From Myxococcota bacterium (GTDB lineage: Bacteria > Myxococcota_A > SURF-8 > G963663525): a stretch of DNA of 64,000 nt. The notes beneath the pieces were generated by a model. It did no database searches. It was given only the letters and a program-made list of their open reading frames with translations, and was not told the origin of the DNA. A program made the translations under genes and the position numbers. This document shows positions 22,960 through 64,000 of this stretch, piece after piece. How positions within the stretch are numbered: the first letter of the stretch is position 1; the number at the start of each line of letters is the position of its first letter. The stretch is from NCBI GenBank assembly GCA_963676915.2, contig CAXXVK010000059.1, positions 18,735 through 82,734 of the forward strand, read 5' to 3'.

Positions 22960-23029
22960 TGCATATTCCTCAAACTATCTTTGAGGATTATGCTTAGTTG
23001 AGCGCAAATTCCAACGAATAGACCTTCTT

Positions 23030-25094: not shown

Positions 25095-25097
25095 GGC

Positions 25098-30688: not shown

Positions 30689-30736
30689 AAATTTGAGTTG
30701 AATTCTCGATTTATAATCCTGGTTCTGACATGATAT

Positions 30737-31006
30737 TTATCCATTATTAGGATCATAACCACTTTCCCCTCTTGCCGTTTCTTTCTTAAATATCTGCTGC
30801 CCGCAATTCCTACACTCCCACTTCGGATCATCATCGGTTAGACTGCATCCGCCCACGATTAGTTTTCCGGATTCAACATCCCGGTAATACTGCTCCGTAG
30901 GTATCGGCATTCCGTATAAGATTACACCCATCGGTTTAAAACCGCAGCTTGGACACTTTCCTGGGCGTCTCACTCGTTCAATACGCTTATTATTGGGTTC
31001 TGGCAC
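30737..31006 (-). CDS. Small Zn-ribbon protein
   Basis: CPSC..ILYGMP..GGC..PKWECRNC. Confidence 0.7.
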   Translation of the reverse strand: MPEPNNKRIERVRRPGKCPSCGFKPMGVILYGMPIPTEQYYRDVESGKLIVGGCSLTDDDPKWECRNCGQQIFKKETARGESGYDPNNG

Positions 31007-31707: not shown

Positions 31708-31720
31708 GCTGATCGTCCCT

Positions 31721-40676: not shown

Positions 40677-40697
40677 TTCGCTCCTCTACTGGCATTG

Positions 40698-42107: not shown

Positions 42108-42112
42108 TGTTG

Positions 42113-42913: not shown

Positions 42914-44688
42914 CTAGCAGCCTTCCCAAGCGTATCAGAGAGGTCGTCTAGTGTACTCTGGAGTTCCTCAATTACACCACGTAGATGCTGCATACCCTTA
43001 GCGGTCTCTGCATCTAGGCGTGTGCTAAACTCAATAACTCTCGACTTGTAGCTCTCGAATCGACTGTCAAGCTCTTCAAATACGTTTTGCAGGGATTTAT
43101 CCACACCTTCAAAGCGCTGGCGGTATTCCTCCCAAATCTGTTTAAAGCGATCCTGGGTTGCTTGGATAGACTGTACGGAATTATGGAGAGCTTCAGCGAT
43201 AACTTTGTTCTGTTCCAGGTTTCGTTCGCTTGCTTCCGACAAAGCACTGAGTGAAGCTCCTGTTTGCTCGATGCTTTGCAATGTAGACTGGGTTGTCCTC
43301 AAAATGGATGCCAGTTGATCGTTAACTTCCTTGGTTTGTATAAGTTGATCACGGCTACCGGAAATGATTGCATCGATGCGGTCAGCTGTATGGTCGAGCT
43401 CCTCCACCCGGGTCTTGAATCCCGACAAGGCATTGGTCATTGATGTCGCTGCGCTTTGTGACGCCTCGCGAAGTTCTCCTGCGATCCCTCCCGCCATTTT
43501 CTTTGTGATCTCGGTTAATTGCTGGATTCCCTGAGAAACCTGTTGTTGAAATGCGGCAGCGCCGGAATTGAACGTTTGTTCCAGTCCGTTACGCATCGAT
43601 TGAGTATTTGCAGAAATGCTCTGCACCAAGTGTTGCGTTGATTTTTCGGATTCTTCTTGGAAGGATTGCAGGGTATTTGCGCTTTGACTAATTGTCTGAT
43701 CGAGACGGGAGAGGGTTTCAGCCATTGATTGGAATTGACTGCCGGTCGCGCCTGATAGGCTTTCTTGAAACTTTTCTACAACGTTTTCCAGAAGCTTTTC
43801 AGTTGAATCTCCACGATCTGCGCGCAAACCTTCAATAGCTGCAATCATTTTGTCTATGCTGGGCATCAAGCGGCCAGCCACCTTTTCATCCAATGCATCT
43901 GCAATGGAAACCGCCAGGTCAGTATTGAATTTCTTCAGGTGGTGTGTTTGGGCTTCCAGTTCCGCCTGGAGCTTACCGGCCATCTTCTCAACGGTGAGGA
44001 ACTGAACGTGACGATCAACTTCTCTGTTCCACTTGTCGATTGTGATTTCAGCGTCACTTAGGAGGCGCTGTTTACCGAAAGAAAAGGCCATAGACGATGC
44101 AAGGCCGCAAATAGATGTCAGGAATGCCAGAGAAGCTCCTCCTAGAAGGTCGGAAAGACCGCTTTTCACTTGTTCGAGGTCTGCAGCCATCATCGCATCG
44201 GAAGCGAGAAAGATGCCAGCTGCCAAACCGATGAAGGTTCCCAGGATTCCTAGACCAGTAAGGATGTTTGGAAAGATATTAAAGAATGAAAGTCGTAAAG
44301 TAGTAGCCACAAGACTTTGGAAAGAGAAATACTCATCGGACTGGCGACTATTTCTTATAATCTTGTCGGAAATAGTTTGATCCGGAAACACCAGGTTTTC
44401 GGTGTATTCTTTCCAGGCGTGAGCAATTATTGGGTACTTTAATAAAATGGCTCTATTGAATTCTTCAAACCTGGAAGCAAATTCTGATTCATCGGTTATT
44501 GCGGAGAGTTCTTTTATTGCCCTGTTGATTTGTCGCTTCACTAGGGAAACTCGTGTATGAAAATACAGACTAATGACAATCAGTCCCAGAACGATTGCCA
44601 AGCAATAGATAAGTACAAATTTCCCACCGATCACGGAACGGGCTAGACTTTCTAACAACACACTATCAACAATTGACTCAATGCTCAT
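42910..44688 (-). CDS. zorA: ZorA: MotA-like membrane protein with long helical tail
   Basis: PNILTGLGILGTFIGL, AFLTSICG, long coiled-coil C-terminus; ATGA overlap with zorB. Confidence 0.92.
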   Translation of the reverse strand: MSIESIVDSVLLESLARSVIGGKFVLIYCLAIVLGLIVISLYFHTRVSLVKRQINRAIKELSAITDESEFASRFEEFNRAILLKYPIIAHAWKEYTENLVFPDQTISDKIIRNSRQSDEYFSFQSLVATTLRLSFFNIFPNILTGLGILGTFIGLAAGIFLASDAMMAADLEQVKSGLSDLLGGASLAFLTSICGLASSMAFSFGKQRLLSDAEITIDKWNREVDRHVQFLTVEKMAGKLQAELEAQTHHLKKFNTDLAVSIADALDEKVAGRLMPSIDKMIAAIEGLRADRGDSTEKLLENVVEKFQESLSGATGSQFQSMAETLSRLDQTISQSANTLQSFQEESEKSTQHLVQSISANTQSMRNGLEQTFNSGAAAFQQQVSQGIQQLTEITKKMAGGIAGELREASQSAATSMTNALSGFKTRVEELDHTADRIDAIISGSRDQLIQTKEVNDQLASILRTTQSTLQSIEQTGASLSALSEASERNLEQNKVIAEALHNSVQSIQATQDRFKQIWEEYRQRFEGVDKSLQNVFEELDSRFESYKSRVIEFSTRLDAETAKGMQHLRGVIEELQSTLDDLSDTLGKAAR

Positions 44689-48187: not shown

Positions 48188-51100
48188 TCAGTTGTCTTTG
48201 CAGCAAAGGACGCCGGAAATATAATCGGGCGCATTGCCGCAACCATCTTCTAATGAACCGGAAACATTTGCAATATGGGTGGCTCCAAGCCAAACCGTGT
48301 CTTGACAGCTTCCCTCGTCAGTAGCATTTCCACAGGCAATCGCTTCGGAACATCTACCACTGGACAAACATCCGTAGGAATCTGAATAAACACATGGATC
48401 ACTGCTTGTGCAATGCGAAGACGCCGCCACGAAAATCCCCTCTCCCGCCGTATCAGAATTGCATTCTGCGGCTGAAATCCGGTCGCTTAGGTCCGCGCTC
48501 AGGCCGTTTCTCATGCAGATATGCCAGCCTTCGGCGCAGAGATCCTCCGCCGTGGGGCAGGTCGCATCCAGGCTGTTTCCGCATGTCGTGTTGCTTCGTG
48601 TGGCGCGCAGGTTGCGGTCGGTGAACTCTCCAGCACAGGAGGCAATATCCGGGAAACGTTCGCCATTCACAAATCCCTCGCGGGTGTTGTCGGAACAGCC
48701 TTCGTAGACCACTTGATCCGTCGTGCGGACGAGGCGGAAACCCATTCCGTATGTTTTTCTTTCGGGTAAATCGTAGGGACGAAACGCGGATCTGCATTCA
48801 TTTGAAGGTCGAGTCCAACTGCCACCGCGCTTCATGCGGCTTGTACCATCGCATTCAGAACTTTCAGGGTCTACGAAATCGTAGGTTTCGTAATTTGCGC
48901 AATATTTATCCCATATCCACTCGAATTCGTTACCCACCATATCAAATAGTCCCCAGGCATTTTCCCTTAATTGTTTTACAGAATGGATAGAACCACTACT
49001 ACTGTACCACCCGATCTGATCCAAGTTTGCGCTCGTTCCATCCATTCCAGCCGCCGTGTGGAAGGCGGTCTGACTTCCAGCCCTGGCGGAATATTCCCAT
49101 TCGGCCTCCGTAGGCAGGCGATATCCTTCGCAGTCTTGGGGTTTATTCACGCCGTTTAAAGCAACCGTGCATTCGTACCCTCCAGTAGTACAGGCTCCAT
49201 CGGAAGATGCACAACCCTCCCCCGGCGTTCCCGTACATTCCGTAAGGATATAGCAAGACGCAAGTCCCGCTTCGGTAGACAAATGGTTGGCGTAAGCCAA
49301 TGCCTCGTACCAGTTGACACGCTCGACCGGGCAGTCGTCGTCGCAATCCGCACCGTCGCCATTGGGACCGAAGTAGCTGGGATTGTTGGCAAATGCCGCA
49401 AACCACTCCCCTTGCGTGACCTCGTGATCCATCATGGTGAAATCATAGGTCAAGGTGACTTCGTGCAGGGTTTCGTCGTCATTGCGCCCGGATTCAGCGG
49501 TACAATCCCCCGATTCCAAAGGACAAGGATCTTCGCCGTTGGGCGATCCCATCCAGAACGTTCCATGCGGCACGTTGACCCAACCGTCGCAGGAGTCGCC
49601 TATACCGTTTCCATCGTAGTCTACCTGGTCGGGGTTTTTCATGGTTGGGCAGTTGTCGGTGGTGTCGGAAATGCCGTCGCGGTCGCCGTCGTCTACGATG
49701 ATATCTCGGACGCAGCGGAAACCGAAGTTAACTCCTGGCTCAATACCTCTATCGGATATTCTGTTATTTGATGCATACCTGATAAAACTTCCACCCCTTA
49801 GCACTCGACTTGACGAGCATTCATCTACTTCCCAGACAGAGCCATTGGTTGGTGCATCTAAATAATTATCTCGATGACAATCCTCCACCCATTCCCAAAC
49901 ATTTCCCAACACATCATACAAGTTCAAACCATTTGGACTTTTCAGTCCCACTGGATGCGTTGTATTATCACTGTTGTCCATGTACCAAGCGATGTTTTCG
50001 ACACAAACATCTTCATCGCCGCAATAATACTTCGTCGTCGTTTCTGCTCTCGCGGCATACTCCCATTCTGCTTCAGAGGGCAGACGCCCCCCGACAGCTT
50101 CACAGAAACTCTTTGCTTCTTGCCAGGTTACACTTTCAACTGGGCAATCCTCCCCGCAATTCTCTCCATCCCCGTTTGGACCAAAATAACTCGGATTCGT
50201 TCCCGTGACCGCTTTGTATTGTGCCTGCGTAACTTCGTACTGCATCATTTCGAATGCAGCCACTTCAACCCTATGGCGTGGGAATTCGTCATCATCACAT
50301 TCCGTATCCCCCGGCGAGCAGCCCATCCAGTAGGTTCCGGCGGGGATTTCAACCCAATTTATACGAAACACATCGCACGCATCCCCCACGCCGTTATTAT
50401 CAAGGTCGTATTGTTCCGGGTTCGCCACCAGCGGGCAGTTGTCGTCGCAGTTTGTATCTTCGGGACCACTGCACGGATGGTCGCCCGAAGCCAGCGAACC
50501 GTCGCCATCGTCGGAGATGCCGTCGCCGTCCGAGTCCAGCGGGTCGCCGCTTGGGTCGGTCAAGGCTCCCAACTGGTGGGACGCTAACGGGTAGTGCAGG
50601 AATTCGTCGGGGGCGAGGGCGCGGTTCATGATGCGGACGGAATCGATGAGGCCATCTACAATCCTCCCAGTATATGCAACATTGTGACGGCCAATGAACA
50701 AAGGTTTATCATTGATACCGATAGACGACAAACCGCATTGAGCTTGAGCGAAGTGATTCCAATCAAAGCCATTGAAAATCGTTTCTCCATCCCAGACGCC
50801 AAGTAGCGCTTCCCAATCGTTGATTGAGACTTCCTCATCTTGGATTTCATTCAGTCCGCAGCTTTCGATTCCACCGTCTCCACGAATCGAGAAACGGGGC
50901 GAACCTTCCGTCGTTCCTGTATCTAAATATAGAGCAAACAGGTTCAGACCCGACGCTTCCGGCTTGGCGACAATCGTCGGATTTTCTTGGCCTCCTGGCC
51001 TGAGATCGTGCATGTAGACAGAAGCTTCCATACTGATTGAACTGGCGAATTGAAAATCTTCCGAGTCGGGAATTTCCACGTAATCATCCACCCCATCGAA

Positions 51101-54091
51101 CTCCAGAGCCGTTCCTTCAAACCCAGCCACCCACTGGGGCGGGCCATCCGTGCCTTCGAGCGTCCCGTTATTCTTATTCACGCTCGAATCTACGGCGATG
51201 CTCCCCACCCCCTCATTGAACCGCCACCAACCCGCGTACCCGGTGCATTCGGAGAGCAGCCCGTAACAAGCTCGGAAATTTTCGCGGTAGGCGTGATGGG
51301 CGAGTTCCACGGGTCGCAGGCTAGCGTCCGAATCGGCCCAGTGCAGCGCGTAACTCAGCCACGAAAACGGCCCGTCGGAGCCGTCCTGGGTGTCCAGAGG
51401 CTCCGTATGCGCCAGGAACCGCACGGTAGGCAGGTTCGGGTGAGCGCGCCGGTAGATGTATTCCGGGGATTTGGCGACCGAGTGGATGAGGACGTCGTCT
51501 AATGCTCCATGGAATGGGACGGAAAAAGAACCGCTGGCATCGTCCGGTTCTGCACCAATGAGCAAAGGAATACTATCGTTATATAAAATTGGACCTGTAA
51601 AATCCGTTGACCCCGCTACAATTCCATTGATATAAACGCTGATCTTCGTTTGGGTAACAACTAAGGCCAAATGACAATATCTTCCGCAACACGAAGAATA
51701 ATCAGCAAATGCCGTAATATAAGAATACTGGTTCCCTTCATTGTTTTTTACACTAAATTTCATTTCTTGCGTTTCGCTCAGATAATATGCACTAAAACCT
51801 CCTCCTTGAGTATTTGAAATTAGGCTTTGTGCGCTTATTGATTCAATGTGCGGCACTTTGGCCCACATTTCGATGGTTAGATAGTGAGTTGGCCGGAATG
51901 CATCATTTGATCCAAGATTTATCATACTTTCGCCATCAAACGCCATCGCCCCTTCGTTATCCCCGAAACTACCCTTGGCCGGTGTCGCTCCGTGGTTTTC
52001 GCCATCATGCTCATTTCCACTCGAATCCAGCGCATTCCCATCCAATTTCCAATACCCCACAACCCCGCAGAAATCCTCGCGGTCGGCGATGTGGGGGATT
52101 TCCGCCGGGTCTACTCCGTCGTATTCAGCAGGGCAAGGCGTGTCCGAATGCGGACGCGGGCCGAGGATTTCGTGGGGGATCAAATGCTCGTCGCTTGCCC
52201 CTGGTAGCTGGTCGCTGGTTTCTGTGATACGGAGGTCGTCGAAGTCGTCCTGCGCGCCGGGGACGTTCTTTGTGCCGTAGGGGGCGCGGGAGTCGTAGTA
52301 GGCGCGGATTTCGTCGGGGGAGAGGGCGCGGTTGAAGAGAATGAAATCATCGACTTTGAAGGAACTGGTCATACTTCCGACTTGTATGCTTCCAACTGTT
52401 GTAGCTGGTGGAGCAGTCGATAGACAACGCTTTCTAAGGATTCCGTTTACAAAAACGGAAATACCTTGACTGTCTCTCGTGCACGCAAGATGTGTCCATG
52501 CTTGATTCGGCACCAAGCCACCTTCCGTCTCGCATTCGATATGGTTTCCCTGATCGTCGTTGTAATCGCATCCCACCCCTTTGTTTTCAATCCGACTGAG
52601 ATCGAAGTTACGATCATAATTCATCGCGAGACCCTTGTGACTGATGCCGCAGCTTCCGTCACCATCAATGATAACCCAGATTCCGATAGTAAAATATGGA
52701 AAATACATTGACGTTGAATCAGAAAAAGACAGATATTGATCGCTATCAATGAATAGTGCCGAATTGTTGTTGGATAAGCGGTCGCTGACGAATGGGGGCG
52801 CACCATACATCGTAATAGGTGCAGCATTTCCGCTTGCGTCTTCCCCATTCCCATCGAACTTCCAATATCCCACCACGGAATCGTCCAGAATGCCGTTGAC
52901 GAGCGGCAGCTCCACCGGTTCGTTCGTGCGTCTCCAAGTGGAATTTTCGCCATTTTCCGAGAGCGTGACCGCCCTTTGAGCGCCGAATTCCGCACTGTGG
53001 AGGCTCCAGACGTCGCAGAGACTCGGATCGTTGTCCGGGTTCCAGACCGTCGGGCAGGTGTCGGCTTCTACCGGATCGCAGTCCGGCGAAAAACACAGGC
53101 CGTCGTGGTCGTAGTCGGGCACGGCTTCCAGGCAGTTGCCCTCGTGCATAAACGCCCCGGCCTCGGTGTCGCAGACCTCGCATAAATCGCCCGACCAGCG
53201 TTGATCACAATTCGTACAAGTACCATCGCCAACGCAGGTTCCGCCGTGCTGGCAGGTGTAGCTCGTTCCCTCGCACGCACCTCCGGCGCTGCAGGCGTCG
53301 TCGGTGCTGCACGAGTCGCCGTCGTCGCAGGGGCCGGTGGTCAGGATGGTCCAGGCGTCGTCGTGGTTCAATGGCGAGCAGATGCGGCAGGAATCGTCGC
53401 CCGACAAGCCTTGCAGCGCGTTTTCTTCAACACAGGTGGAATCGATATAGCAGCCGGAAAGGATTTCGTCCACCACGCAAGCCCCGGACTCGCAGACTTC
53501 GGCGACGCAATCCGTTCCATCGGCATCGCAGGTGTTTTGGTCGTCGTTGAGTTCCACGCAGTCGTTTTCGACGCACGCAAGACTCGTACAGGGATTTGCA
53601 TCCTCGGTAACATCCTCGCAGCCCGTCTCATCGATGCAATCGACACACGCCCCGCTCAAACATTGGTCCTGTGCGCCGCAGGCGGTGCCGTCCTCGACGG
53701 GCGAGCAGCCGTCCGGGCAGCAGGTCGAAACGCCGGAACAGGCGCATTCCGGCTCGGTTTCTTCCGTTAGGTCATCGAGGTCGGCATCTTGTTCCGTCGT
53801 GTCGTCTTCCGTGGCGTCGTCGAGATCGGTATCCGGGATTTCGTTCACATCCAAATCCGTGTCGGCATCGCTTTCACCGGGATCATCGGTTTCATCATCC
53901 AGGTTTTCCAAATCCACGTCACCGTCACCCATGCAGGATTCCAAGCACACGCCGTCACAGCACTCCAACTCGCCCTTGCAGGTTCCGTTGCCGAAGCAAG
54001 GTTGCCCTAAACTTCCGAGATCATTTATGAACCAGTCGCAGCCGGAGAGAAAAAGAGCCACCATTGCCACAAAAACCACGCTTCGGTTCAT
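48188..54091 (-). CDS. Giant surface lipoprotein: Cys-rich repeats, three LamG, TSP3 repeats, two FGE-sulfatase (C-type lectin fold) domains
   Basis: LSGC lipobox; GYW(K/R).D/E motifs; DNCP..NP.Q.D; RLP(S/T)EAEWEY, GN..EW, RGGS, GFR twice. Confidence 0.88.
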   Translation of the reverse strand: MNRSVVFVAMVALFLSGCDWFINDLGSLGQPCFGNGTCKGELECCDGVCLESCMGDGDVDLENLDDETDDPGESDADTDLDVNEIPDTDLDDATEDDTTEQDADLDDLTEETEPECACSGVSTCCPDGCSPVEDGTACGAQDQCLSGACVDCIDETGCEDVTEDANPCTSLACVENDCVELNDDQNTCDADGTDCVAEVCESGACVVDEILSGCYIDSTCVEENALQGLSGDDSCRICSPLNHDDAWTILTTGPCDDGDSCSTDDACSAGGACEGTSYTCQHGGTCVGDGTCTNCDQRWSGDLCEVCDTEAGAFMHEGNCLEAVPDYDHDGLCFSPDCDPVEADTCPTVWNPDNDPSLCDVWSLHSAEFGAQRAVTLSENGENSTWRRTNEPVELPLVNGILDDSVVGYWKFDGNGEDASGNAAPITMYGAPPFVSDRLSNNNSALFIDSDQYLSFSDSTSMYFPYFTIGIWVIIDGDGSCGISHKGLAMNYDRNFDLSRIENKGVGCDYNDDQGNHIECETEGGLVPNQAWTHLACTRDSQGISVFVNGILRKRCLSTAPPATTVGSIQVGSMTSSFKVDDFILFNRALSPDEIRAYYDSRAPYGTKNVPGAQDDFDDLRITETSDQLPGASDEHLIPHEILGPRPHSDTPCPAEYDGVDPAEIPHIADREDFCGVVGYWKLDGNALDSSGNEHDGENHGATPAKGSFGDNEGAMAFDGESMINLGSNDAFRPTHYLTIEMWAKVPHIESISAQSLISNTQGGGFSAYYLSETQEMKFSVKNNEGNQYSYITAFADYSSCCGRYCHLALVVTQTKISVYINGIVAGSTDFTGPILYNDSIPLLIGAEPDDASGSFSVPFHGALDDVLIHSVAKSPEYIYRRAHPNLPTVRFLAHTEPLDTQDGSDGPFSWLSYALHWADSDASLRPVELAHHAYRENFRACYGLLSECTGYAGWWRFNEGVGSIAVDSSVNKNNGTLEGTDGPPQWVAGFEGTALEFDGVDDYVEIPDSEDFQFASSISMEASVYMHDLRPGGQENPTIVAKPEASGLNLFALYLDTGTTEGSPRFSIRGDGGIESCGLNEIQDEEVSINDWEALLGVWDGETIFNGFDWNHFAQAQCGLSSIGINDKPLFIGRHNVAYTGRIVDGLIDSVRIMNRALAPDEFLHYPLASHQLGALTDPSGDPLDSDGDGISDDGDGSLASGDHPCSGPEDTNCDDNCPLVANPEQYDLDNNGVGDACDVFRINWVEIPAGTYWMGCSPGDTECDDDEFPRHRVEVAAFEMMQYEVTQAQYKAVTGTNPSYFGPNGDGENCGEDCPVESVTWQEAKSFCEAVGGRLPSEAEWEYAARAETTTKYYCGDEDVCVENIAWYMDNSDNTTHPVGLKSPNGLNLYDVLGNVWEWVEDCHRDNYLDAPTNGSVWEVDECSSSRVLRGGSFIRYASNNRISDRGIEPGVNFGFRCVRDIIVDDGDRDGISDTTDNCPTMKNPDQVDYDGNGIGDSCDGWVNVPHGTFWMGSPNGEDPCPLESGDCTAESGRNDDETLHEVTLTYDFTMMDHEVTQGEWFAAFANNPSYFGPNGDGADCDDDCPVERVNWYEALAYANHLSTEAGLASCYILTECTGTPGEGCASSDGACTTGGYECTVALNGVNKPQDCEGYRLPTEAEWEYSARAGSQTAFHTAAGMDGTSANLDQIGWYSSSGSIHSVKQLRENAWGLFDMVGNEFEWIWDKYCANYETYDFVDPESSECDGTSRMKRGGSWTRPSNECRSAFRPYDLPERKTYGMGFRLVRTTDQVVYEGCSDNTREGFVNGERFPDIASCAGEFTDRNLRATRSNTTCGNSLDATCPTAEDLCAEGWHICMRNGLSADLSDRISAAECNSDTAGEGIFVAASSHCTSSDPCVYSDSYGCLSSGRCSEAIACGNATDEGSCQDTVWLGATHIANVSGSLEDGCGNAPDYISGVLCCKDN

Positions 54092-55541: not shown

Positions 55542-55646
55542 TCAGGATTTCTTCAAACGTTTCGTGGCACGGTCGAACAGTTTTCCGGCGAGAATCACCG
55601 CCGCTTGCAAGACCGCTGCTTTCAGTACTTGGATGGCACCATTCAC
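55542..55646 (-). CDS. 34-aa amphipathic peptide
   Basis: Read manually: GTG overlapping upstream TGA, GAGGAG RBS, MNGAIQVLKAAVLQAAVILAGKLFDRATKRLKKS. Confidence 0.5.
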   Translation of the reverse strand: MNGAIQVLKAAVLQAAVILAGKLFDRATKRLKKS

Positions 55647-55897
55647 GTGGGATTCTCCTCGCTGGGTGTTATGGTGATGTCGGCACCGTTCGTTGCGTTG
55701 GTGTGCCGATCGAATGTATTGCCGACCAGTCCGCCGATGGCGCCACCCACCGCCGATCCGACGGATCCAGCGACCCGTGCGCCAATGGACGCCAGCACTC
55801 CTGCGCCGACAGCGGCGTATTTGTTGTCGTTGACGATGGCGAGAACACCTTCCCGCGCCTCGTCAAGATCCAACGGCTGTTTCTTCAAATCATGCAT
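55643..55897 (-). CDS. Glycine-zipper small membrane protein
   Basis: GSVGSAVGGAIGGLVG; AGGAG RBS. Confidence 0.7.
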   Translation of the reverse strand: MHDLKKQPLDLDEAREGVLAIVNDNKYAAVGAGVLASIGARVAGSVGSAVGGAIGGLVGNTFDRHTNATNGADITITPSEENPT

Positions 55898-55925: not shown

Positions 55926-56633
55926 CTACTCGGTCATGATGCCAAACGTGGAGCAATCCACGGCGATCTTGCGCGGAAGCGGCTGTCCCAAGGCGTGTTT
56001 CTTTACGAGGATCGCTACCAGCGCACCGGTGAGCATGGAGTTGTAGATCACCGCCCGCGCCGTGCAAGGCAGCTGCATCGACTCCCCCGCAGGATGCAAA
56101 GTTTCTTCGTAAGCCTGTACCCCTAGCAGATCGCCATGGGATTTCGCGGTGTAGATCACGATGTATTCGCCTCCTTGGCGTGGGTCGATGATCGTGATGG
56201 GTCGTGCCCGGCTTCCCTGGGATTTGGCTTGTTCCCAGATCGTCCGGCGGGCCTCCATGTTGTCCACGCTGGAGATGACCAGGCGCTTGGGATCGTCGTG
56301 GCCGAGGGGTTGATCGGTGTATCGCTGATTGAACTGGCCGGGAAGCGTTTGGGTCAGACGAGTGACTTCACAAGCCAGCGCAACGACTTTCGGACGCGTG
56401 AGGTGTTCGGCACCGAAGATCTGATTGCTGATGTTGTGCGGCTCGACCGTATCGTTGTCGTAGATGTCGACGTCCAAGCAACCCATCTTGGCCAGCGCCA
56501 GTGTGGTGTAGCTGCCGGATGCCCCTGCACCAATGATGGTGATAGGAAAATCCAGCTTGTCGGGGTGGATGATGTCGAGCTGGCGGTGAAACTGGGTATC
56601 GAGGGTGGTACGATCCATGTTGCTTTGATCCAT
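55926..56633 (-). CDS. E1-like ThiF-family adenylyltransferase
   Basis: RQ.D, IIGAGASGS, D.D.VE.HN..NQ, K, VDN..AR, DPR, candidate catalytic Cys in LPCTAR. Confidence 0.9.
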   Translation of the reverse strand: MDQSNMDRTTLDTQFHRQLDIIHPDKLDFPITIIGAGASGSYTTLALAKMGCLDVDIYDNDTVEPHNISNQIFGAEHLTRPKVVALACEVTRLTQTLPGQFNQRYTDQPLGHDDPKRLVISSVDNMEARRTIWEQAKSQGSRARPITIIDPRQGGEYIVIYTAKSHGDLLGVQAYEETLHPAGESMQLPCTARAVIYNSMLTGALVAILVKKHALGQPLPRKIAVDCSTFGIMTE

Positions 56634-56644
56634 GGCAGATCCTT

Positions 56645-56998
56645 TCAGTGGTTACGCTTTTTGATCTCCGGGATTTCGGAAAGCGGCTTGGGTGTGAAGT
56701 GGATGTCACGTTCGATGGCTTGTAGGCCAGGAATGCGCTTGCCGTTGATACGGGCTTCCAGGGATTCGAGTTCCTTCAGACTGAAATAGCCGAGTTCACC
56801 GCAGCCAGGATGGATTTCGGCCCAGCCGAAGCAGGTGTCGCCGCTATCGTGGTCGAACTCGGTCAAGTACCATACTCCGCTGGAACCATAGGCATAGAAC
56901 CAACGAGCATATGCGATGGCATCCATGCCCTTGCCGTCTTGGGCATACAGCGCCGGAAGTCGTTTACGAATCTCTTTCGTCAACAGTTTCTGTTTCAT
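56645..56998 (-). CDS. DUF2958-like protein
   Basis: LP.LYAQ..WYLTE.D..FG..ELGYFSL.EL..IERD.HF.P..L. Confidence 0.8.
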   Translation of the reverse strand: MKQKLLTKEIRKRLPALYAQDGKGMDAIAYARWFYAYGSSGVWYLTEFDHDSGDTCFGWAEIHPGCGELGYFSLKELESLEARINGKRIPGLQAIERDIHFTPKPLSEIPEIKKRNH

Positions 56999-57009
56999 CG
57001 GTATTTCTC

Positions 57010-57939
57010 CTACAATCCGGGATACTCCGTGAAATATCCCCATTCACCGAGTACCTGCAGCACCGACCACGGATCGACTTCGCGGCCATCGCCACCGAGA
57101 ATTCCATCAAGGAGTCCCCAGAAATCCTCCAGGTCGCCCTGCCAGTTTTCGATGTCATCGAGCAGCTCTGCAGCTTGATCGGAGGTCAATCCGACCTGCT
57201 GCAACTCGGTCAAAATGTCGTCGTCGGGTGGAGTGTTGCCGGTATGTTCGGCAAAACGGCGGTTCGGACCGCAACCAAGGCCGAACTTTTCATCCGGCCA
57301 GAGCAATCCCCAGGGCGCGACGGACGTATTGACTTTTTCGTGCAACTCCTTCTCCAAGGCTTCATCGCGCTCCACACTGGAAAGGAAGCCGAGCTTGACC
57401 TGATCGACGGTGATACGCCAGGGATGGTACAAGTCCAATCGGGCGCGGAAATGACCGGCCTTGTTCGTCACGATGCTGATCAGCCAGTCGCCGTTGTCCA
57501 TTTGTTCGATGGTATCCGTGTCTTCCGACGACCAGAAGCAGTCCATGTCGGCATGGCTATGCGCCCAACAACGGAGATCGGATACATCGTACCCAGCTTT
57601 TACAAGTTCGGTCATCAGCATCCCCATGGATTCACGATCGGGACTGGTGTGGGAATTCGTACAGATCTGTTCCGGCAGGAAGAATTTCTTCACGACAATG
57701 GCACCGGAATCTTTGTCTATCTCCGTGACTCCGAAGCAGGAGAATTCTCCCCGCGCCGCCTGTGTCCAGACACGAATCTGCTTTTCAGCTTCAGCCGACA
57801 GCAGCACTTTCGGGGTTCGGTCGGAAATCTTCCGTTTCGTCTCCATCGGTTTCTTCGTCGTCTTCGTCATCTTCGTCGGCCCAGGCTTGGCACTCGTCTC
57901 GGTGCGGACAGTCCGGGCATTCGGGTTCGTTTTGTTCAC
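57010..57939 (-). CDS. JAB/MPN (JAMM) metallo-isopeptidase
   Basis: GEFS, P.Q, WAHSH..M..FWS..D..TI; start uncertain (GTG 57939 or ATG 57846). Confidence 0.88.
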   Translation of the reverse strand: MNKTNPNARTVRTETSAKPGPTKMTKTTKKPMETKRKISDRTPKVLLSAEAEKQIRVWTQAARGEFSCFGVTEIDKDSGAIVVKKFFLPEQICTNSHTSPDRESMGMLMTELVKAGYDVSDLRCWAHSHADMDCFWSSEDTDTIEQMDNGDWLISIVTNKAGHFRARLDLYHPWRITVDQVKLGFLSSVERDEALEKELHEKVNTSVAPWGLLWPDEKFGLGCGPNRRFAEHTGNTPPDDDILTELQQVGLTSDQAAELLDDIENWQGDLEDFWGLLDGILGGDGREVDPWSVLQVLGEWGYFTEYPGL

Positions 57940-59299
57940 GGCAATCCTCCTCGTTTTCGGGGTGCAACAAGCACCATTCGCGTTGGCACATAAGGCAATC
58001 GTAGGGCGAGCCATCGTTGCGGCAGTCGTCGCGCACGTCGTCGATGAACGGACATTCCGGGTTGGCGCAGTCCAGGCAATCACTGGAACTGGAGTTCTCG
58101 TAACAACGCTCCCATCGACTGATCCAGTGCGGACAGTCACGGTCGTGGCAATCAGTACAGCTGGCTTCACCGGCGTCCAGGCAGTCGTCATACTCGTCGC
58201 GATCCGGATCGAACCACTGTGTGTACGGGTCCAGCGGGTTGTAGGACATCAGGAATTCGTCGAGTAGCAGCAGCAACGTTCCCCATTCGCGCTGGGCCAT
58301 GAGCTTGTTGACGTCGTCGCCGATGTTGCCCAAACACGGGCTGCCATCGGTCGAGACATGCGGGTGGAAATAATTTCCACGCCACTCGTTGTTTCCCGTC
58401 GGTTCGAACTTGATGAGTTCACGTCCGGTCAACTCGATCCGGCAGCGGATGTCGCCCAGTTCCGACTCTTCACCCGAATCCGGGTCTTCAAGCCTCACAT
58501 CGGTGTGGACCGCCACCAGTTCGGTGTCGCTGATGTTGATGGATTGAAAGCGCTCGCCGACGAGGGATTGCAGCTGCTTGCTGATGCGCTTGACCGCATT
58601 CACAGTGCGTCCGCATTTCTCGTTGACGGCTAAGCGAAGCAGGCGTTCCTGCTCTCGTTGGCGTGCCAGCGTGGCCACGAGTTGATGGTACTGGCGGTTC
58701 AGTTCAAGCAGATTGGCCTCGTTGTCGCAGATGTCCTGCTGAGTGCGCTCCAGGCTCTGGCGCGAGAGGGCGGTGTAGAAGCTCCCGAATCGACGCGCTG
58801 TCTCGACCGGATTCGGCACCCGCATGGCATGGCGGCAGGCCCAGTCGAAGCCGTCCTTGAAGATGCTGGTCAACAGGGCGCGCTTGGCTCCGAAGGTCAC
58901 CTCCAGGCCGTTCTGAAAGCGGATGCTGTTCTCGTCGACACGCCCGATGTAACCGTCCAGCGCCCATGCGCCGTGTATGTATGGCACCTGAAGGTCGATG
59001 CCACTGGCTCTGGGAATCCACCGCTTGCGATCTTCGTTCAACAACTTCCGCTTCTCGTAGGATATCGCCGCGTTAGTCGGAGCAAGGTAGAAACGAAAAT
59101 CGCCATCCAGCGCGGTGACCTCGTATTCCCGGCTGGTGACGATGGTCACGACCGGCCCGAGCATGTACGCCGCGTCGGATCGGTTATCTTCTTTCACTTG
59201 GACCATGGGTCGTTGATCGGCAGGAAACATCAACAACCACTCTAGCATCAAGGCCTTCAGGATCTCGGCAATACGAGTGGTTTCATGTAAGTTCTCCAT
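57791..59299 (-). CDS. Prokaryotic E2-like protein with coiled coil and Cys-rich acidic tail
   Basis: HPHV..G.PCLG E2-type motif, L.SYN..D.Y; repeated CxxCxxxxC in the tail. Confidence 0.75.
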   Translation of the reverse strand: MENLHETTRIAEILKALMLEWLLMFPADQRPMVQVKEDNRSDAAYMLGPVVTIVTSREYEVTALDGDFRFYLAPTNAAISYEKRKLLNEDRKRWIPRASGIDLQVPYIHGAWALDGYIGRVDENSIRFQNGLEVTFGAKRALLTSIFKDGFDWACRHAMRVPNPVETARRFGSFYTALSRQSLERTQQDICDNEANLLELNRQYHQLVATLARQREQERLLRLAVNEKCGRTVNAVKRISKQLQSLVGERFQSINISDTELVAVHTDVRLEDPDSGEESELGDIRCRIELTGRELIKFEPTGNNEWRGNYFHPHVSTDGSPCLGNIGDDVNKLMAQREWGTLLLLLDEFLMSYNPLDPYTQWFDPDRDEYDDCLDAGEASCTDCHDRDCPHWISRWERCYENSSSSDCLDCANPECPFIDDVRDDCRNDGSPYDCLMCQREWCLLHPENEEDCREQNEPECPDCPHRDECQAWADEDDEDDEETDGDETEDFRPNPESAAVG

Positions 59300-59370
59300 G
59301 TTGCCTCCGTAAAGATATGAACGGCGGAGAGTTTCTCCTCCGCCGCTCAGGTTCGATCACCTCCTTCCGG

Positions 59371-59625
59371 TTACCGATGGAGCATCACGCCTCCATCGAC
59401 TTTCGGCGTTAACGCAAGGATGTCGCCGTCGTCGGGACGTTCGTGCAACTGGGTGTGGACGCCGTTCAGCGTCAAGGCGTAGCCCTGGGCGTCGAAACCC
59501 GCCAAGGTGAGCGCGTCGGCGCAGGTCGAGCCCGCCGGGACGGTGACCTGGCGCTGGCGGCCAATGCTGACGACGGTTACGCGGATTCCGTGATTGCGGG
59601 ACGGGTGATCGTTCTGGTCGTTCAT
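59371..59625 (-). CDS. Ubiquitin-like (beta-grasp) protein with GG plus 5-residue extension
   Basis: V..G.T..DAL..LNG..DGD.L.L.PKVDGG-VMLHR; AGGAG RBS. Confidence 0.82.
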   Translation of the reverse strand: MNDQNDHPSRNHGIRVTVVSIGRQRQVTVPAGSTCADALTLAGFDAQGYALTLNGVHTQLHERPDDGDILALTPKVDGGVMLHR

Positions 59626-59671
59626 GGGATTTCTCCTGGAATGGATGAATGGGCGATGTTGCCCGGGAATG

Positions 59672-59695
59672 AAAAGGCCGCCCAACTAGGCGGCC
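59672..59695 (-). terminator. Hairpin/terminator between leader ORF and Ubl gene
   Basis: GGCCGCC-6nt-GGCGGCC followed by TTTT on the minus strand. Confidence 0.5.
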
Positions 59696-59727
59696 ACACG
59701 GTAAGGGGTTGATTCTGAAGTTGAGTA

Positions 59728-59952
59728 CTACTCTGCGGTGTCGCCGTTCAACGTGTTGACGAACACGTCCTTTGGAGCCCATGAGCCGTCTGGCAATCGA
59801 CGTTTGGTGTTGTAGGCGAAGGAAGGGAGTGGCCGGTCTTCGGCGTCCAGATGGGACAAGGCCTGAAGACCGGCCAACTCGTTGGCGAGGGACGTGGGGA
59901 GGGGAAGTTGGTGGTGGGTATCGGTCGCCGTGCTGACCACGTTCGTTGACAT
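59728..59952 (-). CDS. Small hypothetical protein leading the Ubl operon
   Basis: GGAGG RBS, 74 aa. Confidence 0.6.
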   Translation of the reverse strand: MSTNVVSTATDTHHQLPLPTSLANELAGLQALSHLDAEDRPLPSFAYNTKRRLPDGSWAPKDVFVNTLNGDTAE

Positions 59953-61086
59953 GGGAAACCTCCGAGATTGATGGTTGCAGTTGGTGTACGTACACACGAA
60001 ACGACGAGCTCAAACCGTGACTGCGGCTAAAGTGCCTGTCGTTGGTGAGTTGAAGGACTGGATGACCAGTGTAGATCTTCCAGCTTCCTAAATGACTTAT
60101 GTCCATGAAATAGCTGGATTTACGCTTGACTGCCGTGTACGTACAGTGAAAATCCTATGGATAAAAAAATTGGCCTGTAATACTGGGACTCCAGTGAGTC
60201 GTTACCGGATTGAGATTCGATTTCATTTTAGCGCTAAAGGAAGACGAAGATGCGGTTTTGATCCAAGGCAACCCAATCCTTTGCATTTCATCAGATTGCG
60301 GACTGAGTGCAAGCGCCGGAAAGTGGCGGTATAGCGATTTACGGAAGAACTATCGAATCTCTATAGGATGTTGCCTCGTACGCGATTATTACTCCGGCAT
60401 CTAAAGAAGCAACATTACCAGCGATTTTTTGCCAAAGAGAAGAAGTATTGTTAATCGTTGATATTGTTAAGTTATTCCGATTTTTAACCGGGGTGAAAGT
60501 TCACTTGTCGATGTCGGAAGTTTAAGTGCCCGCGTAATAATCAGATCGTTCTACTAGATCGAGGGCCTTTTTCGACGTATAATGGGTATGATTCAATTCT
60601 CGGGCCATCGCCCGCCAGCTCAATCCTTCTACTTTTTACCTTTTTCCGAATTCGTTCGTAATCTGCCACTATCAACATCTTTCCCGCTTTCCTGATTACT
60701 GATAATAGTCAATGAAATCAAACATCTACAACTTTGGAAAAACTTCAAACAGTGGCGATGTTTTGCAGGCTTCTTACGTCAATGACTAGCTTCATTTTGC
60801 ATATACACTACCAGGGAAAGGTTTAAAATAAGAATAGTGGATAGATGGAAGGAAATACCAAAATCACTTTTGTAGAATTTTCGTTGCAAAAACTATCAAA
60901 AGCGCATTTTCATCGGTTCTGACGAAGGGAATCTCTATCTCTTCCAACGATTTGAAAAGATTGCTGAAAAGCCTTCGTAAATCTTGGACCTGTAGTGTGC
61001 ATCGGATAAAGAATTTGTCCGATACACACTACAGGTCTTGCTTTGTCAACGGATTGCTTTACCCAAAACGCAAAGACCGAGAATAT

Positions 61087-64000
61087 TTACGGAATCGTCC
61101 TACAGATTCGGAAACCGATAGTGCTGTAGCGCGAATAGGGCGCACCGTTGCTGCGGGACGCAGACCGGCAGTCCTGGGCGGTGTAATTCATTGAGCCGCC
61201 GCGCTTGACTTGGCTCGATCCCGTACTCGGTCCCACCGGATCGGTTCCCACGTCCGTCTCGTAAGCATACTGAAACCTGTCCCAAACCAACTCACTTACG
61301 TTCCCGCTCATATCGTACAGGCCCCAAGCGTTTGCCTCCTTACCGCCTACAGGCTTCGTTCCGTATGGATCAACGTTGTAGTAATTCCAGGCTATCTGGT
61401 CCAGGTTCGGATCGCTGCTCGTGCTCGTGATCGTCCCATTATTCCCATCACTCAGATAAAACGCCGTATACTGATTCCCTGCTCGAATCGCATACTCCCA
61501 CTCGGCCTCCGTGGGTAGCCGATACCCCTCGCAATCCTGAGGTTTCCCCACCCCGTTCAAAGCCACCGTGCAAATATACAAATTCTCTCCATAAAAACAT
61601 CTACTTTCCGACGATTCGCAACCGCTACCAAAAGTCCCCGAGCAGCTTGTGAGCGTGTAACAGGGCGTCAAACCATGCTCCGTCGAAAGCCAGTTCGCGT
61701 ATACCAGAACCTCATACCAGTTTACACGTTCCACAGGGCAGTTATCCCCACAATCCGGTTTATCTCCATTCGGTCCGTAATAGCTTGGATTGTACCCGAA
61801 AGCAGCGAACCACTCTCCCTGGGTCACTTCATGCACCTGCAATTCGAAATCGTAGGTCAACGTCACTCTGTGAAGTTTTTCTCGAGCTGAAGCCCCTGTA
61901 GGTCGCCCCATCTCGCTGGTGCAGGAAGCCGGATACCCCGCCGGGCAGTCGCCATCCGGGCTACCCATCCAGAAAGTACCGGCCTGAATGGCTACAAATC
62001 CCTCCGTGTGGCAGTCCGGATGCCCACTGAATCCCTCTTGACAATCCCCGCAATCCGACGTCATGAACTCGTTGTCGCAGGTGCAATTTCCATTCGCCTG
62101 ATTGCAGGTTCCGTGTCCGTGGCAAGGATCGGGCTCGCAAGGGTCGTCACGGCAGGTCGGGTACTCTAGGTAGCCTTCGGCGCAAACTCCACAGCCGCTG
62201 CCGTCGTAGCCCGTGTTGCACTCGCAACTTCCGTCTGCCGAATCGCAGGTTCCGTGTCCGTTGCAGGGATCGGGATCGCAGGGGTCGTCACGGCAGGTCG
62301 GGTACTCGATGGTACCCTCTTGACAATCCCCGCAGTCCGACGTCATGAAGGCGTTGTCGCATTCGCAACTTCCGTCCGCCTGATCGCAGGTGCCGTGATT
62401 GTTGCAAGGATCGGGTTCACAGGGGTCGTCACGGCAGTCCGGGAAGTCAAGGTAGCCCTCCCGACACGCCAGGCAATCTTCCGTCATGAACGCGTTGTTG
62501 CAGGTGCAGGAGCCATCGGCAGTGTCGCAGGTGCTGTACTGATTGCAGGGATCGGGATCGCAGGGATTGTCCCTACAGTTCGGATAATCGATATACTCTC
62601 CCTGACAAGCCCCACAGTCCACCGTCATGAACGCATTGTCGCAAGTACAGCTTCCGTCCGCCGAATCACACGTTCCATGGCCATTGCAAGGGTCGGGGAC
62701 ACAGGGGTCGTCCCGGCAGTCCGGGTACTCGATCGTCCCGCTTTGACAATCCCCGCAATCTGCTGTCATGAACGCATTGTCGCATTCGCAACTTCCATCT
62801 GCCTGATCACAGGTGCCGTGGTTATTACAGGGGTCAGGCTCGCAAGGGTCGTCCCGGCAGTCTGGGAAATCGATGGCACCCTCTTGACAGGCCGAGCAGT
62901 CCGCTGTCATGAATGCGTTGTCACAGGTACAACTTCCGTCCGCTTGGTCGCAGGTACCATGATCGTTGCAAGGATCGGGTTCGCAGGGGTTGTCCCTGCA
63001 GTCCGGGTAGTCGATGGTCCCTTCTTGACAATCCCCGCAATCCGCCGTCATGAATTCGTTGTCACATTCGCAACTTCCGTCCGCAGAATCGCAGGTGCCG
63101 TGACCGTTGCAGGGATCGGGTTCGCAGGGGTCGTCCCGACAGTCCGGGTAGTCGATGGTTCCCTCCTGGCAATCTCCGCAATTCGCCGTCATGAATTCGT
63201 TGTCGCAGGTGCAACTCCCGTCCGCTTGGTCGCAAGTTCCGTGACTGTTACACGGATCGGGTTCGCAGGGGTCGTCCCGGCAGTCCGGGAAGTCGATAGT
63301 CCCCTCCTGGCAAGCCGAGCAATCCGCCGTCATGAACGCATTGTGGCAGACGCACTCGCCCTCACCGTTGCAGGTTCCGTGGTCATTTCGGCAACTTGTG
63401 CCGTTTCCAAAAGGTTCGTAACCGCAGGTTTCCGTCTCCCAAAGGTAGATTCCCGACTTGCACACCTCCGGTGGACAGGTCGGCGCAACCGTTTGAAAAT
63501 GCAGGACAAATTTTACTTCACGTTCATTGCCGGAGAGATCCGCCAGCCCAGCTCCCAACGTGAAGGTGTAGGTGAAGCCGTCTACGAACTCGGCATCCGG
63601 CGTGAATACCACCGTGGTCCCGTTTTCCAGGATTGCCGTGCCGGAAACGGCCTCGTCGGTCAATGTCCGTTTCAACGTCGCCCGGAGACTCGCCGGGGCC
63701 AGCGTCTCGTCGAAAACCACTCGGACTTCCGTCAATCCCACGAGGTTTTCCTGCCCTTCATCTGGCATCGTCCATAGGATACGTGGCGGCTCTGTGTCCG
63801 GCGCTTCGTTTAGAATGATTTCGCCAAGATTCCACTCGTCGTTCTCCGGGATCGAGCCCGAAATCTCTTTGTATAATCGCAACTCGTCGTGGGAAATCTC
63901 CACCCGTGCCGCTCCGGCTGGCACCGCCGAGACCACGAAACGCCCCTCGGCGTCGGTCTGACTGACCAAATCCCAGCCCAAGACGGGATGCACCGTCACA
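61087..64000 (-). CDS. Large surface protein (5' end outside window): Ig-like, EGF-like tandem repeats, C-terminal FGE-sulfatase domain
   Basis: DTEPP..V.FDE..DLSGN Ig-like; 47-aa Cys repeats; RLPTEAEWEY, GLYDMSGNV.E, RGGS, GFR. Confidence 0.88.
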   Translation of the reverse strand, partial: VTVHPVLGWDLVSQTDAEGRFVVSAVPAGAARVEISHDELRLYKEISGSIPENDEWNLGEIILNEAPDTEPPRILWTMPDEGQENLVGLTEVRVVFDETLAPASLRATLKRTLTDEAVSGTAILENGTTVVFTPDAEFVDGFTYTFTLGAGLADLSGNEREVKFVLHFQTVAPTCPPEVCKSGIYLWETETCGYEPFGNGTSCRNDHGTCNGEGECVCHNAFMTADCSACQEGTIDFPDCRDDPCEPDPCNSHGTCDQADGSCTCDNEFMTANCGDCQEGTIDYPDCRDDPCEPDPCNGHGTCDSADGSCECDNEFMTADCGDCQEGTIDYPDCRDNPCEPDPCNDHGTCDQADGSCTCDNAFMTADCSACQEGAIDFPDCRDDPCEPDPCNNHGTCDQADGSCECDNAFMTADCGDCQSGTIEYPDCRDDPCVPDPCNGHGTCDSADGSCTCDNAFMTVDCGACQGEYIDYPNCRDNPCDPDPCNQYSTCDTADGSCTCNNAFMTEDCLACREGYLDFPDCRDDPCEPDPCNNHGTCDQADGSCECDNAFMTSDCGDCQEGTIEYPTCRDDPCDPDPCNGHGTCDSADGSCECNTGYDGSGCGVCAEGYLEYPTCRDDPCEPDPCHGHGTCNQANGNCTCDNEFMTSDCGDCQEGFSGHPDCHTEGFVAIQAGTFWMGSPDGDCPAGYPASCTSEMGRPTGASAREKLHRVTLTYDFELQVHEVTQGEWFAAFGYNPSYYGPNGDKPDCGDNCPVERVNWYEVLVYANWLSTEHGLTPCYTLTSCSGTFGSGCESSESRCFYGENLYICTVALNGVGKPQDCEGYRLPTEAEWEYAIRAGNQYTAFYLSDGNNGTITSTSSDPNLDQIAWNYYNVDPYGTKPVGGKEANAWGLYDMSGNVSELVWDRFQYAYETDVGTDPVGPSTGSSQVKRGGSMNYTAQDCRSASRSNGAPYSRYSTIGFRICRTIP
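62013..63393 (-). repeat. Intragenic 141-bp tandem repeat (nine full copies plus one partial)
   Basis: CRDDPCEPDPCNxHGTCDxADGSCxCDNxFMTxDCxxCQEG.. counted in the translation. Confidence 0.9.

Follow-up and report, generated by a model that had tools for sequence, protein, structure and literature searches.

This report concerns a cluster of putative genes for the conjugation of a ubiquitin-like protein (Ubl) on contig CAXXVK010000059.1 of a Myxococcota bacterium (assembly GCA_963676915.2). The cluster lies in a stretch of 64,000 nt, here called the window, whose positions serve as coordinates throughout. Read 5' to 3' on the minus strand, the locus consists of a 74-codon open reading frame (ORF), a GC-rich hairpin, the Ubl gene, a hairpin with a 13-bp stem, genes for an E2-like protein, a JAB peptidase, a DUF2958 protein, and an E1 enzyme, and an ORF for a small Gly-zipper protein. 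A first-pass annotation had proposed a Ubl-E2-JAB-DUF2958-E1 operon spanning 55926..59952. The five co-directional genes were borne out, all on the minus strand and all with intact reading frames, as were the four activities for Ubl conjugation and deconjugation, whose catalytic residues are conserved. The upper limit did not stand, since 59952 is the ATG of a truncated 74-residue ORF, ORF0, upstream of the Ubl gene.

Family libraries recognized only two of the products, DUF2958 and E1, and the Ubl touched ThiS below the gathering score. E2 and JAB matched no model of Pfam, NCBIfam, PADLOC, or PHROGs, permissive thresholds included, and their identification needed structure prediction and profile searches. 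In Pfam at E ≤ 10, neither the Prok-E2 nor the UQ_con family was found for the E2, nor any JAB family for the JAB, and phmmer searches of the PDB with the two proteins returned chance-level matches only.

The ubiquitin-like protein

The Ubl gene (59371..59625, minus strand) encodes an 84-residue protein of the beta-grasp ThiS/SAMP2 type. Its tail, ...TPKVDGG-VMLHR, is as the first-pass annotation had described it, and gives the protein the form of a precursor (...KVDGG + VMLHR). The match to ThiS (PF02597) has an E value of 0.0028. A profile of 18 family members matched Pyrococcus furiosus PF1061/SAMP2 (1rws, E 3.6e-6; 5lda_B, E 3.4e-5) from end to end, with the Gly-Gly of the family aligned on the C-terminal Gly-Gly of SAMP2. 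The extension after the Gly-Gly is family-wide: PK[VI][DE]GG followed by 1 to 5 variable residues ends 25/25 true Ubl members aligned, a count that leaves out one viral ORF (L054:6443-6670), which was dropped as a Ubl on account of its poor alignment. A further viral Ubl copy ends in GG-NL. This family-wide short tail fits preprocessing of the Ubl by the JAB peptidase.

Between the Ubl and E2 genes lies an attenuator- or terminator-like hairpin (59318..59349, minus strand) with a 13-bp stem and a T-rich tail. The stem is kept in 7/7 loci compared, with differing loops, and the most distant copy (L036) is a canonical hairpin followed by T7. The conservation of this element suggests partial termination, which would favor Ubl transcripts.

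The E2-like protein

The E2-like protein (57791..59299, minus strand; 502 residues), which contains ...YFHPHVSTDGSPCLGNI..., is built of an N-terminal domain (residues 1-135, poorly modeled and partly disordered), long helices with a coiled coil (136-246), a UBC-fold core (229-367), four Cys4 repeats, and an acidic tail. Its AlphaFold2 model (mean predicted local distance difference test score [pLDDT], 77.9) has helices at 136-158, 164-225, and 230-246, a beta-meander flanked by helices, and a Cys-rich tail that is itself helical; the near-continuous helix at 136-246, ahead of the E2 core, agrees with the large coiled-coil E2 of the first-pass annotation. The active-site candidates are H312-P313-H314 and C322 (HPH-x7-C).

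A Foldseek search of the PDB with this model gave no match at E ≤ 1e-3, and among the matches listed, 49/49 belonged to entries that include a UBC E2; the best was 3sy2_C (E 4.4e-3, probability 1.00). With a profile of the core built from 21 sequences of bacterial and viral loci, 21 of the 22 PDB matches at E ≤ 10 were E2 enzymes. The best of them, UBE2L3 (E 0.0064), aligned with aHPHvskdGePCLGNis on YHPNIDEKGQVCLPVIS, so that the His-Pro and the Cys coincide (HPH-x7-C on HPN-x8-C). The protein thus has the UBC fold, the HPx motif, and the Cys about 8 residues downstream that mark the UBC/E2 superfamily. From the UBE2L3 alignment and the UBC-fold matches, we take the core to be a UBC domain of the classical Cys type, with His in place of the Asn of HPN.

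The family is large. An exhaustive HMMER search with the E2 returned 518 cluster representatives at E ≤ 1e-3, 73 at 1e-10, and 6 at 1e-30, with similarity spanning residues ~170-490. In an alignment of 86 sequences, P313, H314, C322, and G324 do not vary, and H312 and G319 are nearly invariant. The sixteen cysteines of the tail (C373...C470), invariant in 14 sequences, form four C-x7/8-C-x2-C-x4/5-C repeats, and a loose active-site motif is present in 105 of the 150 best representatives, 59 of which carry at least 16 Cys after it (59/105). The four repeats may bind metal, as putative zinc or iron-sulfur sites.

The JAB peptidase

The JAB/JAMM metallopeptidase gene (57010..57846, minus strand; 278 residues, or 286 from an alternative ATG at 57870) begins within the 3' end of the E2 gene, in a different frame. 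The protein has an MPN core at about residues 20-185 and a C-terminal helical domain. Among 1,006 candidates, 24 homologues were found at E ≤ 1e-3, none with a precomputed Pfam domain, and the residues of the JAMM site (E...HxHx7Sx2D: E42, H104, S105, H106, S114, and D117) are invariant in 24/24 aligned JABs. The AlphaFold2 model (pLDDT, 70.9) had 173 Foldseek matches in the PDB at E ≤ 1e-3, led by Rpn11, CSN5, and BRCC36, and matched the Caldiarchaeum Rpn11 homologue 6fnn_A (target TM-score, 0.67; root-mean-square deviation, 3.7) and a bacterial Ubl-deubiquitinase complex (8tyx_B, E 2.1e-5). The zinc-site residues of a JAMM (MPN+) peptidase are thus found on an MPN fold, though no Pfam JAB model matched.

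E1 and DUF2958

The E1 gene (55926..56633, minus strand) encodes a single-domain adenylating enzyme of 235 residues, of the ThiF/UBA5 type. It belongs to the ThiF/MoeB/E1 family by its match to PF00899 (E 7.1e-14; 52 bits against a cutoff of 28.1; residues 31-139), and its homologues are 217 to 254 residues long. Residues of the ATP site are invariant (GxGxxG with G35, G37, and G40; D59, D61, N67, Q71, K82, D124, and R129). Cys190 lies in a (P/V)CTx(R/K) motif and is invariant in 14/14 aligned E1s, the most divergent of which share about 30% identity. UBA5 (5.9e-16) and ThiF (6e-15) are the nearest matches to the family profile. These PDB matches cover only residues 18-143, the N-terminal half, so that Cys190 is equated with known catalytic cysteines by its position only. 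The best NCBIfam and PADLOC matches were 6A-MBL cap2_3 (NF058523; 47.7 bits against a cutoff of 320) and the PADLOC E1-E2 models (down to 8.7e-10, ~residues 30-130); all NCBIfam matches (6A-MBL cap2_3, ThiF, and PRTRC_ThiF) were far under their cutoffs. The E1 also matched phrog_15670 (E 1.5e-13).

Between JAB and E1 lies the gene for a 117-residue DUF2958 protein (56645..56998, minus strand), assigned by PF11171 (E 3.4e-15; 56.8 bits against a cutoff of 21). It is paired with E1 in two related genomes as well (G003, of the same genus, and G007). The first-pass annotation had taken the embedded DUF2958 as the mark of a distinct subtype. It is absent from the cassette in 4/4 viral genomes and 5/5 distant Myxococcota loci examined, and it is therefore no such mark; by this distribution, DUF2958 is a lineage-specific insert, seen only in this bacterial order.

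Distribution in Myxococcota and state of the window copy

On the gene orders compared, the conserved unit is a four-gene cassette, Ubl-E2-JAB-E1. In 5/5 distant Myxococcota loci, E2, JAB, and E1 follow one another without a gap gene, with a Ubl upstream in 4/5. Among relatives, carriage is sporadic and multi-copy, in integrase/primase elements. The E2 core profile matched 17/301 sampled genomes of the phylum, with up to six copies in one. Within the same order, JAB was found in 7/10 genomes, often in several copies and as fragments. One complete Myxococcota chromosome, a metagenome-assembled genome (MAG), holds three copies of E2, five of DUF2958, and six of E1, of which five are intact and one carries a stop codon; the cassette halves there are separated by 9 to 27 kb, an integrase and a D5_N primase lie upstream of one copy, and one DUF2958-E1 pair adjoins genes for WCX, PD-(D/E)XK nuclease, helicase, and SMC-like proteins. 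In G003, 4 kb with two Lcl_C-domain proteins lies between JAB and DUF2958-E1.

Synteny between the window and G003 covers 60252-59987, 59953-59741, 59666-57037, and 57001-55951 and stops there. Relative to G003, the ratio of nonsynonymous to synonymous substitution rates (dN/dS) is 0.15 for E2, 0.10 for JAB, 0.12 for DUF2958, 0.11 for E1, and 0.34 for Ubl, and by these values, 0.10-0.15 for the enzymes, the cassette genes are under purifying selection.

ORF0 (59728..59952, minus strand; 74 residues) is the truncated 5' remnant of a gene for about 250 residues, ORF0L. Its residues 1-74 align with the N termini of ORFs of 249 to 268 residues in four genomes (G003, G006, G007, and G010), and about 590 bp of ORF0L has been deleted in the window. 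ORF0L has no Pfam or PADLOC match and no sequence match in the PDB at E ≤ 10; it matched phrog_23155 (E 1.6e-6), and its nearest ESM-Atlas clusters are 96-97% viral, which we treat as a lead only. Like DUF2958, it was seen with the cassette only in this bacterial order, and none was present in the five distant Myxococcota loci. Neither direct repeats or att sites nor an integrase was found at the borders of the unit in the window. The truncated first gene, together with the lack of mobility genes and repeats at the borders, points to a stranded, reduced copy.

Connection to phages and mobile elements

Searching IMG/VR with a degenerate DNA pattern for the E2 active-site motif located 16 loci on 14 viral contigs. 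Within 2 kb of these loci, tblastn found JAB at 9/16, E1 at 8/16, and Ubl at 3/16, and an E1 was present in 4/5 viral records searched. The gene set recurs in four viral genomes, in two of them in the cassette order, and the orders noted are E2-JAB-E1, E2-JAB-E1-Ubl, Ubl-E2-JAB-E1, and Ubl-E2-JAB with E1 4 kb upstream. The neighbors include genes for a terminase large subunit, HNH endonuclease, RNA ligase, UvsX-like recombinase, helicases, and DNA polymerase. One of the cassette-bearing records is a genome of 65,182 bp with direct terminal repeats that is rated 100% complete. All four viral E1s matched phrog_15670, and the viral E2 and JAB matched no PHROG. The best BFVD matches of the E2 model are uncharacterized phage proteins of 408 to 542 residues (6 at E ≤ 1e-3), and the ESM-Atlas neighbors of E2 are mostly viral, again a lead only. 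A tblastn search of 50,697 INPHARED phage records with the E2 gave no match at E ≤ 1e-3, and a locus search with the single E2 protein returned one MAG and no viral contig. The cassette family is for the most part carried by phages, and it spreads mainly with them and with mobile elements.

Comparison with known systems

Bil systems, of types I and II, comprise a separate Ubl (BilA), a Cys-type UBC-fold E2 (BilB), a JAB (BilC), and an E1 (BilD), with no E3; the Ubl is preprocessed by the JAB, exposing a Gly, and the four activities serve defense (10.1101/2023.09.26.559546, 10.1101/2024.11.21.623953). The cassette has the same gene set, with a separate Ubl, a Cys-type UBC-fold E2, a JAB, and no E3. 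It differs from Bil in its E1, which is one ThiF domain of 235 residues with the Cys after the crossover region, whereas BilD is multidomain, in an E2 that adds an N-terminal domain, a coiled coil, and four Cys4 repeats, and in a Ubl of ThiS/SAMP2-like type. PADLOC-DB 2.0.0, a release whose content of Bil models is unverified, gave no match for Ubl, E2, or JAB at E ≤ 0.1.

The PRTRC/class 6d set is likewise carried on mobile elements and consists of a small Ubl with a C-terminal Gly, an E2-like protein lacking a His at the classical position and having a downstream His, a JAB with a JAB-N domain, and a stand-alone E1-like protein (Iyer, Burroughs, and Aravind 2006, PMC1779556). The cassette resembles it as a mobile-element-borne group of Ubl, E2-like, JAB, and stand-alone E1 genes. 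Unlike in class 6d, the HPH of the cassette E2 stands at the classical position, eight residues before C322, the JAB has no N-terminal extension (core from ~20), and there is no ParB gene. Of the NCBIfam PRTRC models, only PRTRC_ThiF matched the E1, with 39 bits against a cutoff of 144.75, and at E ≤ 0.01 none matched Ubl, E2, JAB, or DUF2958.

With the archaeal SAMP/UbaA/JAMM system, the cassette shares a Ubl whose profile, among solved structures, matches P. furiosus SAMP2 best (one of the chains, 5lda_B, was solved together with its JAMM), as well as a small ThiF-type E1 and a JAMM peptidase. Archaeal sampylation is described as E2 independent, whereas a UBC-fold E2 is invariably part of the cassette, and the NCBIfam UbaA model reached 23 bits against a cutoff of 450. 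Caldiarchaeum-type operons encode Ub, E1, E2, a RING E3, and Rpn11 (PMC5654768). The classical HPx...C core of the E2 and the Rpn11-like JAB, which matched 6fnn_A, are common to both; the cassette differs in having no separate RING E3 gene, a minimal E1, and a Ubl that is ThiS-like rather than ubiquitin-like.

In CBASS Cap2, the catalytic Cys is on a crossover loop without a helical insert (Cap2 preprint), and the position of Cys190 in the cassette E1 suggests a similar crossover-loop Cys. CBASS Cap2/Cap3 and class 6a are, in contrast to the separate genes and Ubl of the cassette, E1-E2(-JAB) fusions with a conjugated CD-NTase or no Ubl. By definition, type II CBASS (class 6b) has an E2-E1 fusion protein, a CD-NTase as its substrate, and an effector gene; the E1 and E2 of the cassette are separate, and no nucleotidyltransferase match was found in or beside the cassette ORFs. 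Nor does the cassette fall into class 6a (an E2-E1-JAB fusion with a metallo-beta-lactamase [MBL] gene next to it), having separate genes and no MBL match among the scanned ORFs. Bub systems (6e/DUF6527) have E1 and E2 without catalytic Cys, oxyesters, a DUF6527 serine protease, and fused proteins (10.1101/2024.11.21.623953). In both, a single bacterial operon brings together genes for a Ubl, an E2, an E1, and a peptidase; unlike in Bub, C322 of E2 and C190 of E1 are invariant, and no cassette ORF has a DUF6527 match.

The first-pass annotation had thus been right to expect a departure from described operons, as there is no gene-for-gene match to Bil, Bub, PRTRC, or CBASS Cap2/Cap3. A literature search, the scope of which left out the supplements of the Bil and Bub preprints and papers on the natural history of E1 and E2, turned up no account of this family or of Ubl-E2-JAB-E1 cassettes carried by phages. 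We read the cassette as a putative new variant of the prokaryotic E1-E2-JAB conjugation systems, borne by phages or mobile elements.

Proposed function and alternatives

We lean toward the view that the locus represents, in compact form on the chromosome, a Ubl-E2-JAB-E1 conjugation cassette that circulates in tailed phages and integrative elements, with DUF2958 and the truncated gene of about 250 residues as order-specific extras, and that it serves the mobile element. In the mechanism that would follow, the five residues behind Gly79 would be cut off by the JAMM peptidase to expose a di-glycine end, which a small, presumably homodimeric E1 of the ThiF/UBA5 type would adenylate and convert to a thioester on Cys190. 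The Ubl would then be passed to Cys322 of the UBC-fold E2, which, without a partner E3, might pick targets through its N-terminal domain, coiled coil, and four Cys4 repeats and transfer the Ubl to them. JAB could also reverse the tagging, and the hairpin after the Ubl gene would hold Ubl transcripts in excess of enzyme transcripts. The system as a whole would serve the element in phage-host or phage-phage conflict. A role on behalf of the phage or element is favored by a complete phage genome that carries the cassette and by replication and packaging genes found next to it.

Several observations weigh against this view. The third position of the HPN motif in the E2 is His rather than Asn, the Pfam score of the Ubl is below the gathering level, and the correspondence of Cys190 to the catalytic cysteines of UBA5, ATG7, and Cap2 is positional only. 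The window copy may be impaired if ORF0L is needed, its first gene being truncated. IMG/VR contigs can include misbinned host DNA; the genome with terminal repeats argues against such misbinning here.

A real but distinctly lesser possibility is that tailed phages and satellite-like elements carry a complete Ubl machinery in which the E2 is a self-contained E2/E3 hybrid, its classical HPx-Cys UBC core joined to a coiled coil and four Cys4 metal clusters, perhaps among the closest prokaryotic relatives of canonical eukaryotic E2s, and with which proteins of the host or of rival phages are tagged during infection. If true, this would make Ubl tagging an offensive viral tool in prokaryotes, besides its part in host defense.

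The same biochemistry might instead provide antiphage defense to the host or resident element, the Ubl being put on proteins of invading phages, as in Bil. We judge this rather unlikely. The four activities of the cassette are those that Bil uses for defense (10.1101/2023.09.26.559546, 10.1101/2024.11.21.623953). The window holds a defense island 11 to 33 kb away (type I Zorya, McrBC-like, AbiEi, and viperin-like radical SAM genes), and this island, with the nuclease, helicase, and other defense-like genes beside one DUF2958-E1 pair of the MAG, keeps a Bil-like defense role open. Defense systems often ride on prophages, and presence on viral contigs is compatible with such a role. However, no PADLOC model matches Ubl, E2, or JAB, the ORFs adjoining the cassette have no Pfam match to a regulator of the CapW or CapH-CapP type, and genes for large secreted proteins separate the cassette from the island. 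That a complete phage genome holds the cassette, and that other viral records have it next to replication or packaging genes, also speaks against a defense role.

It is improbable that the locus is a decaying, nonfunctional remnant of a mobile element whose frames are open but idle in this genome. The deletion of ~590 bp from the first gene would be expected of a remnant, as would the JAB and E1 fragments and stop-containing copies of related genomes and the lack of an integrase or att repeats at the borders of the unit in the window. The five remaining frames are intact, however, with all catalytic residues present, and the four enzyme-sized genes have dN/dS values of 0.10-0.15 against G003, which, as averages over the whole divergence, are compatible with a recent loss of function.

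Least probable is a sulfur-carrier pathway of the ThiS/MoaD-ThiF type, in which JAB would release a product as in the CysO/Mec synthesis of cysteine and the genes would serve small-molecule biosynthesis rather than tagging: the Ubl is ThiS/SAMP2-like and the E1 lies equally close to ThiF and UBA5, but the gene set always includes a UBC-fold E2 with an invariant Cys, the 235-residue E1 is a single ThiF domain without a rhodanese domain, the context is that of phages, and, as the first-pass annotation had noted, the window holds no sulfur-transfer biosynthesis family (Pfam scan of 37 large ORFs), with no sulfurtransferase, ThiG/ThiH, MoaE, or CysM among the ORFs scanned or beside the cassette in relatives. 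JAB-ThiS-ThiF neighborhoods for sulfur transfer, which would count in favor of this pathway, were reportedly described by Iyer et al. in 2006.

The bacterial Ubl conjugation systems tested so far are few (type II CBASS, Bil, and Bub), and all three have been read as host defense. The cassette offers a compact set of parts, with a minimal UBA5/ThiF-like E1, a Cys-type E2 with built-in domains and no E3, an Rpn11-like peptidase, and a SAMP2-like tag. If active, these would make a small and tractable four-protein model of E1-E2 chemistry and allow a direct test of whether phages themselves use Ubl tagging, and they would provide annotation handles for about 500 sequence clusters now listed as hypothetical.

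Flanking elements and surroundings of the locus

Upstream of ORF0, a noncoding stretch (59987..60252, minus strand) is 78% identical over 269 nt to G003, where similarity ends upstream of it; this conserved leader is probably the promoter or 5' region of the cassette. A GC-rich hairpin with a T run (59676..59695, minus strand), found in a consensus scan, follows the truncated ORF0 and resembles a terminator. Terminator-like sites in the region did not exceed those in shuffled sequences (7 versus 6.7), and neither did promoter-like counts. Between the leader and the next gene lies an AT-rich stretch of ~830 bp (60253-61086; GC content about 0.47 in a 2-kb bin) that has no convincing ORF and is not conserved in G003.

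Directly after the E1 gene is the ORF for an 84-residue protein with weak Gly-zipper matches only (55643..55897, minus strand), followed by a possible overlapping ORF of 34 codons; neither adjoins the cassette in relatives. The Gly-zipper ORF was dropped as a member of the system after tblastn found no homologue beside the cassette in any relative, and its product probably lies outside the system.

Very large secreted proteins (with FGE-sulfatase, Lcl_C, Laminin_G_3, EGF, or Kelch domains) are encoded on either side of the cassette or within it, both in the window (48188-54091 and 61087-63999) and in G003 (L033:10565-13970 and 16617-17804) and the MAG (L060/L061). Such domains, of the C-type-lectin fold, are frequent targets of diversity-generating retroelements. 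In G003, divergently oriented upstream of ORF0L, a 702-residue double-AAA ATPase (L033:4029-6137, minus strand; PADLOC IetA, 1.6e-39; TRIP13-like, 6e-17) adjoins an ISL3 transposase and has no counterpart in the window.

As seen from the cassette, the defense island lies beyond the large secreted-protein genes, at a distance of 11 kb to its nearest gene. A complete type I Zorya system (37350-44688, minus strand) comprises ZorA (42910-44688), ZorB (42113-42913), ZorC (40698-42107), and ZorD (37350-40676), with PADLOC E values from 7e-46 down to 0. At 31721-35839 (minus strand), an McrBC-like pair, formed by an AAA_5 ATPase (33070-34890) and an McrC-family protein (31721-33073), has an Mrr_N protein upstream (34817-35839), with weak PADLOC matches. 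At 27266-31770 (minus strand), a 1,140-residue CHAT-domain (caspase-like) protein adjoins a TY-Chap2 chaperone-like protein, and two unassigned ORFs follow downstream; there was no PADLOC match. The segment at 22381-25607 (minus strand) encodes a radical SAM protein with weak matches to viperin (pVip, E 4.7e-12), a thymidylate-kinase-like protein (PADLOC PDC-M51B, 2.7e-41; VakA, 7e-19), a protein with a GreA/GreB C-terminal domain, and an AbiEi antitoxin-like protein without an obvious AbiEii partner.

The remains of an integrative element occupy 5255-21902, with a tRNA-Thr gene (5255-5330), an IS4/5 fragment (6359-6832), a D5_N/DUF5906 primase (17567-19033), and a DUF4428 protein. Its integrase (21306-21902) is reduced to the arm-binding domain and the SAM-like N terminus, and the pairing of integrase and D5_N is the one that also stands upstream of one cassette copy in the MAG.

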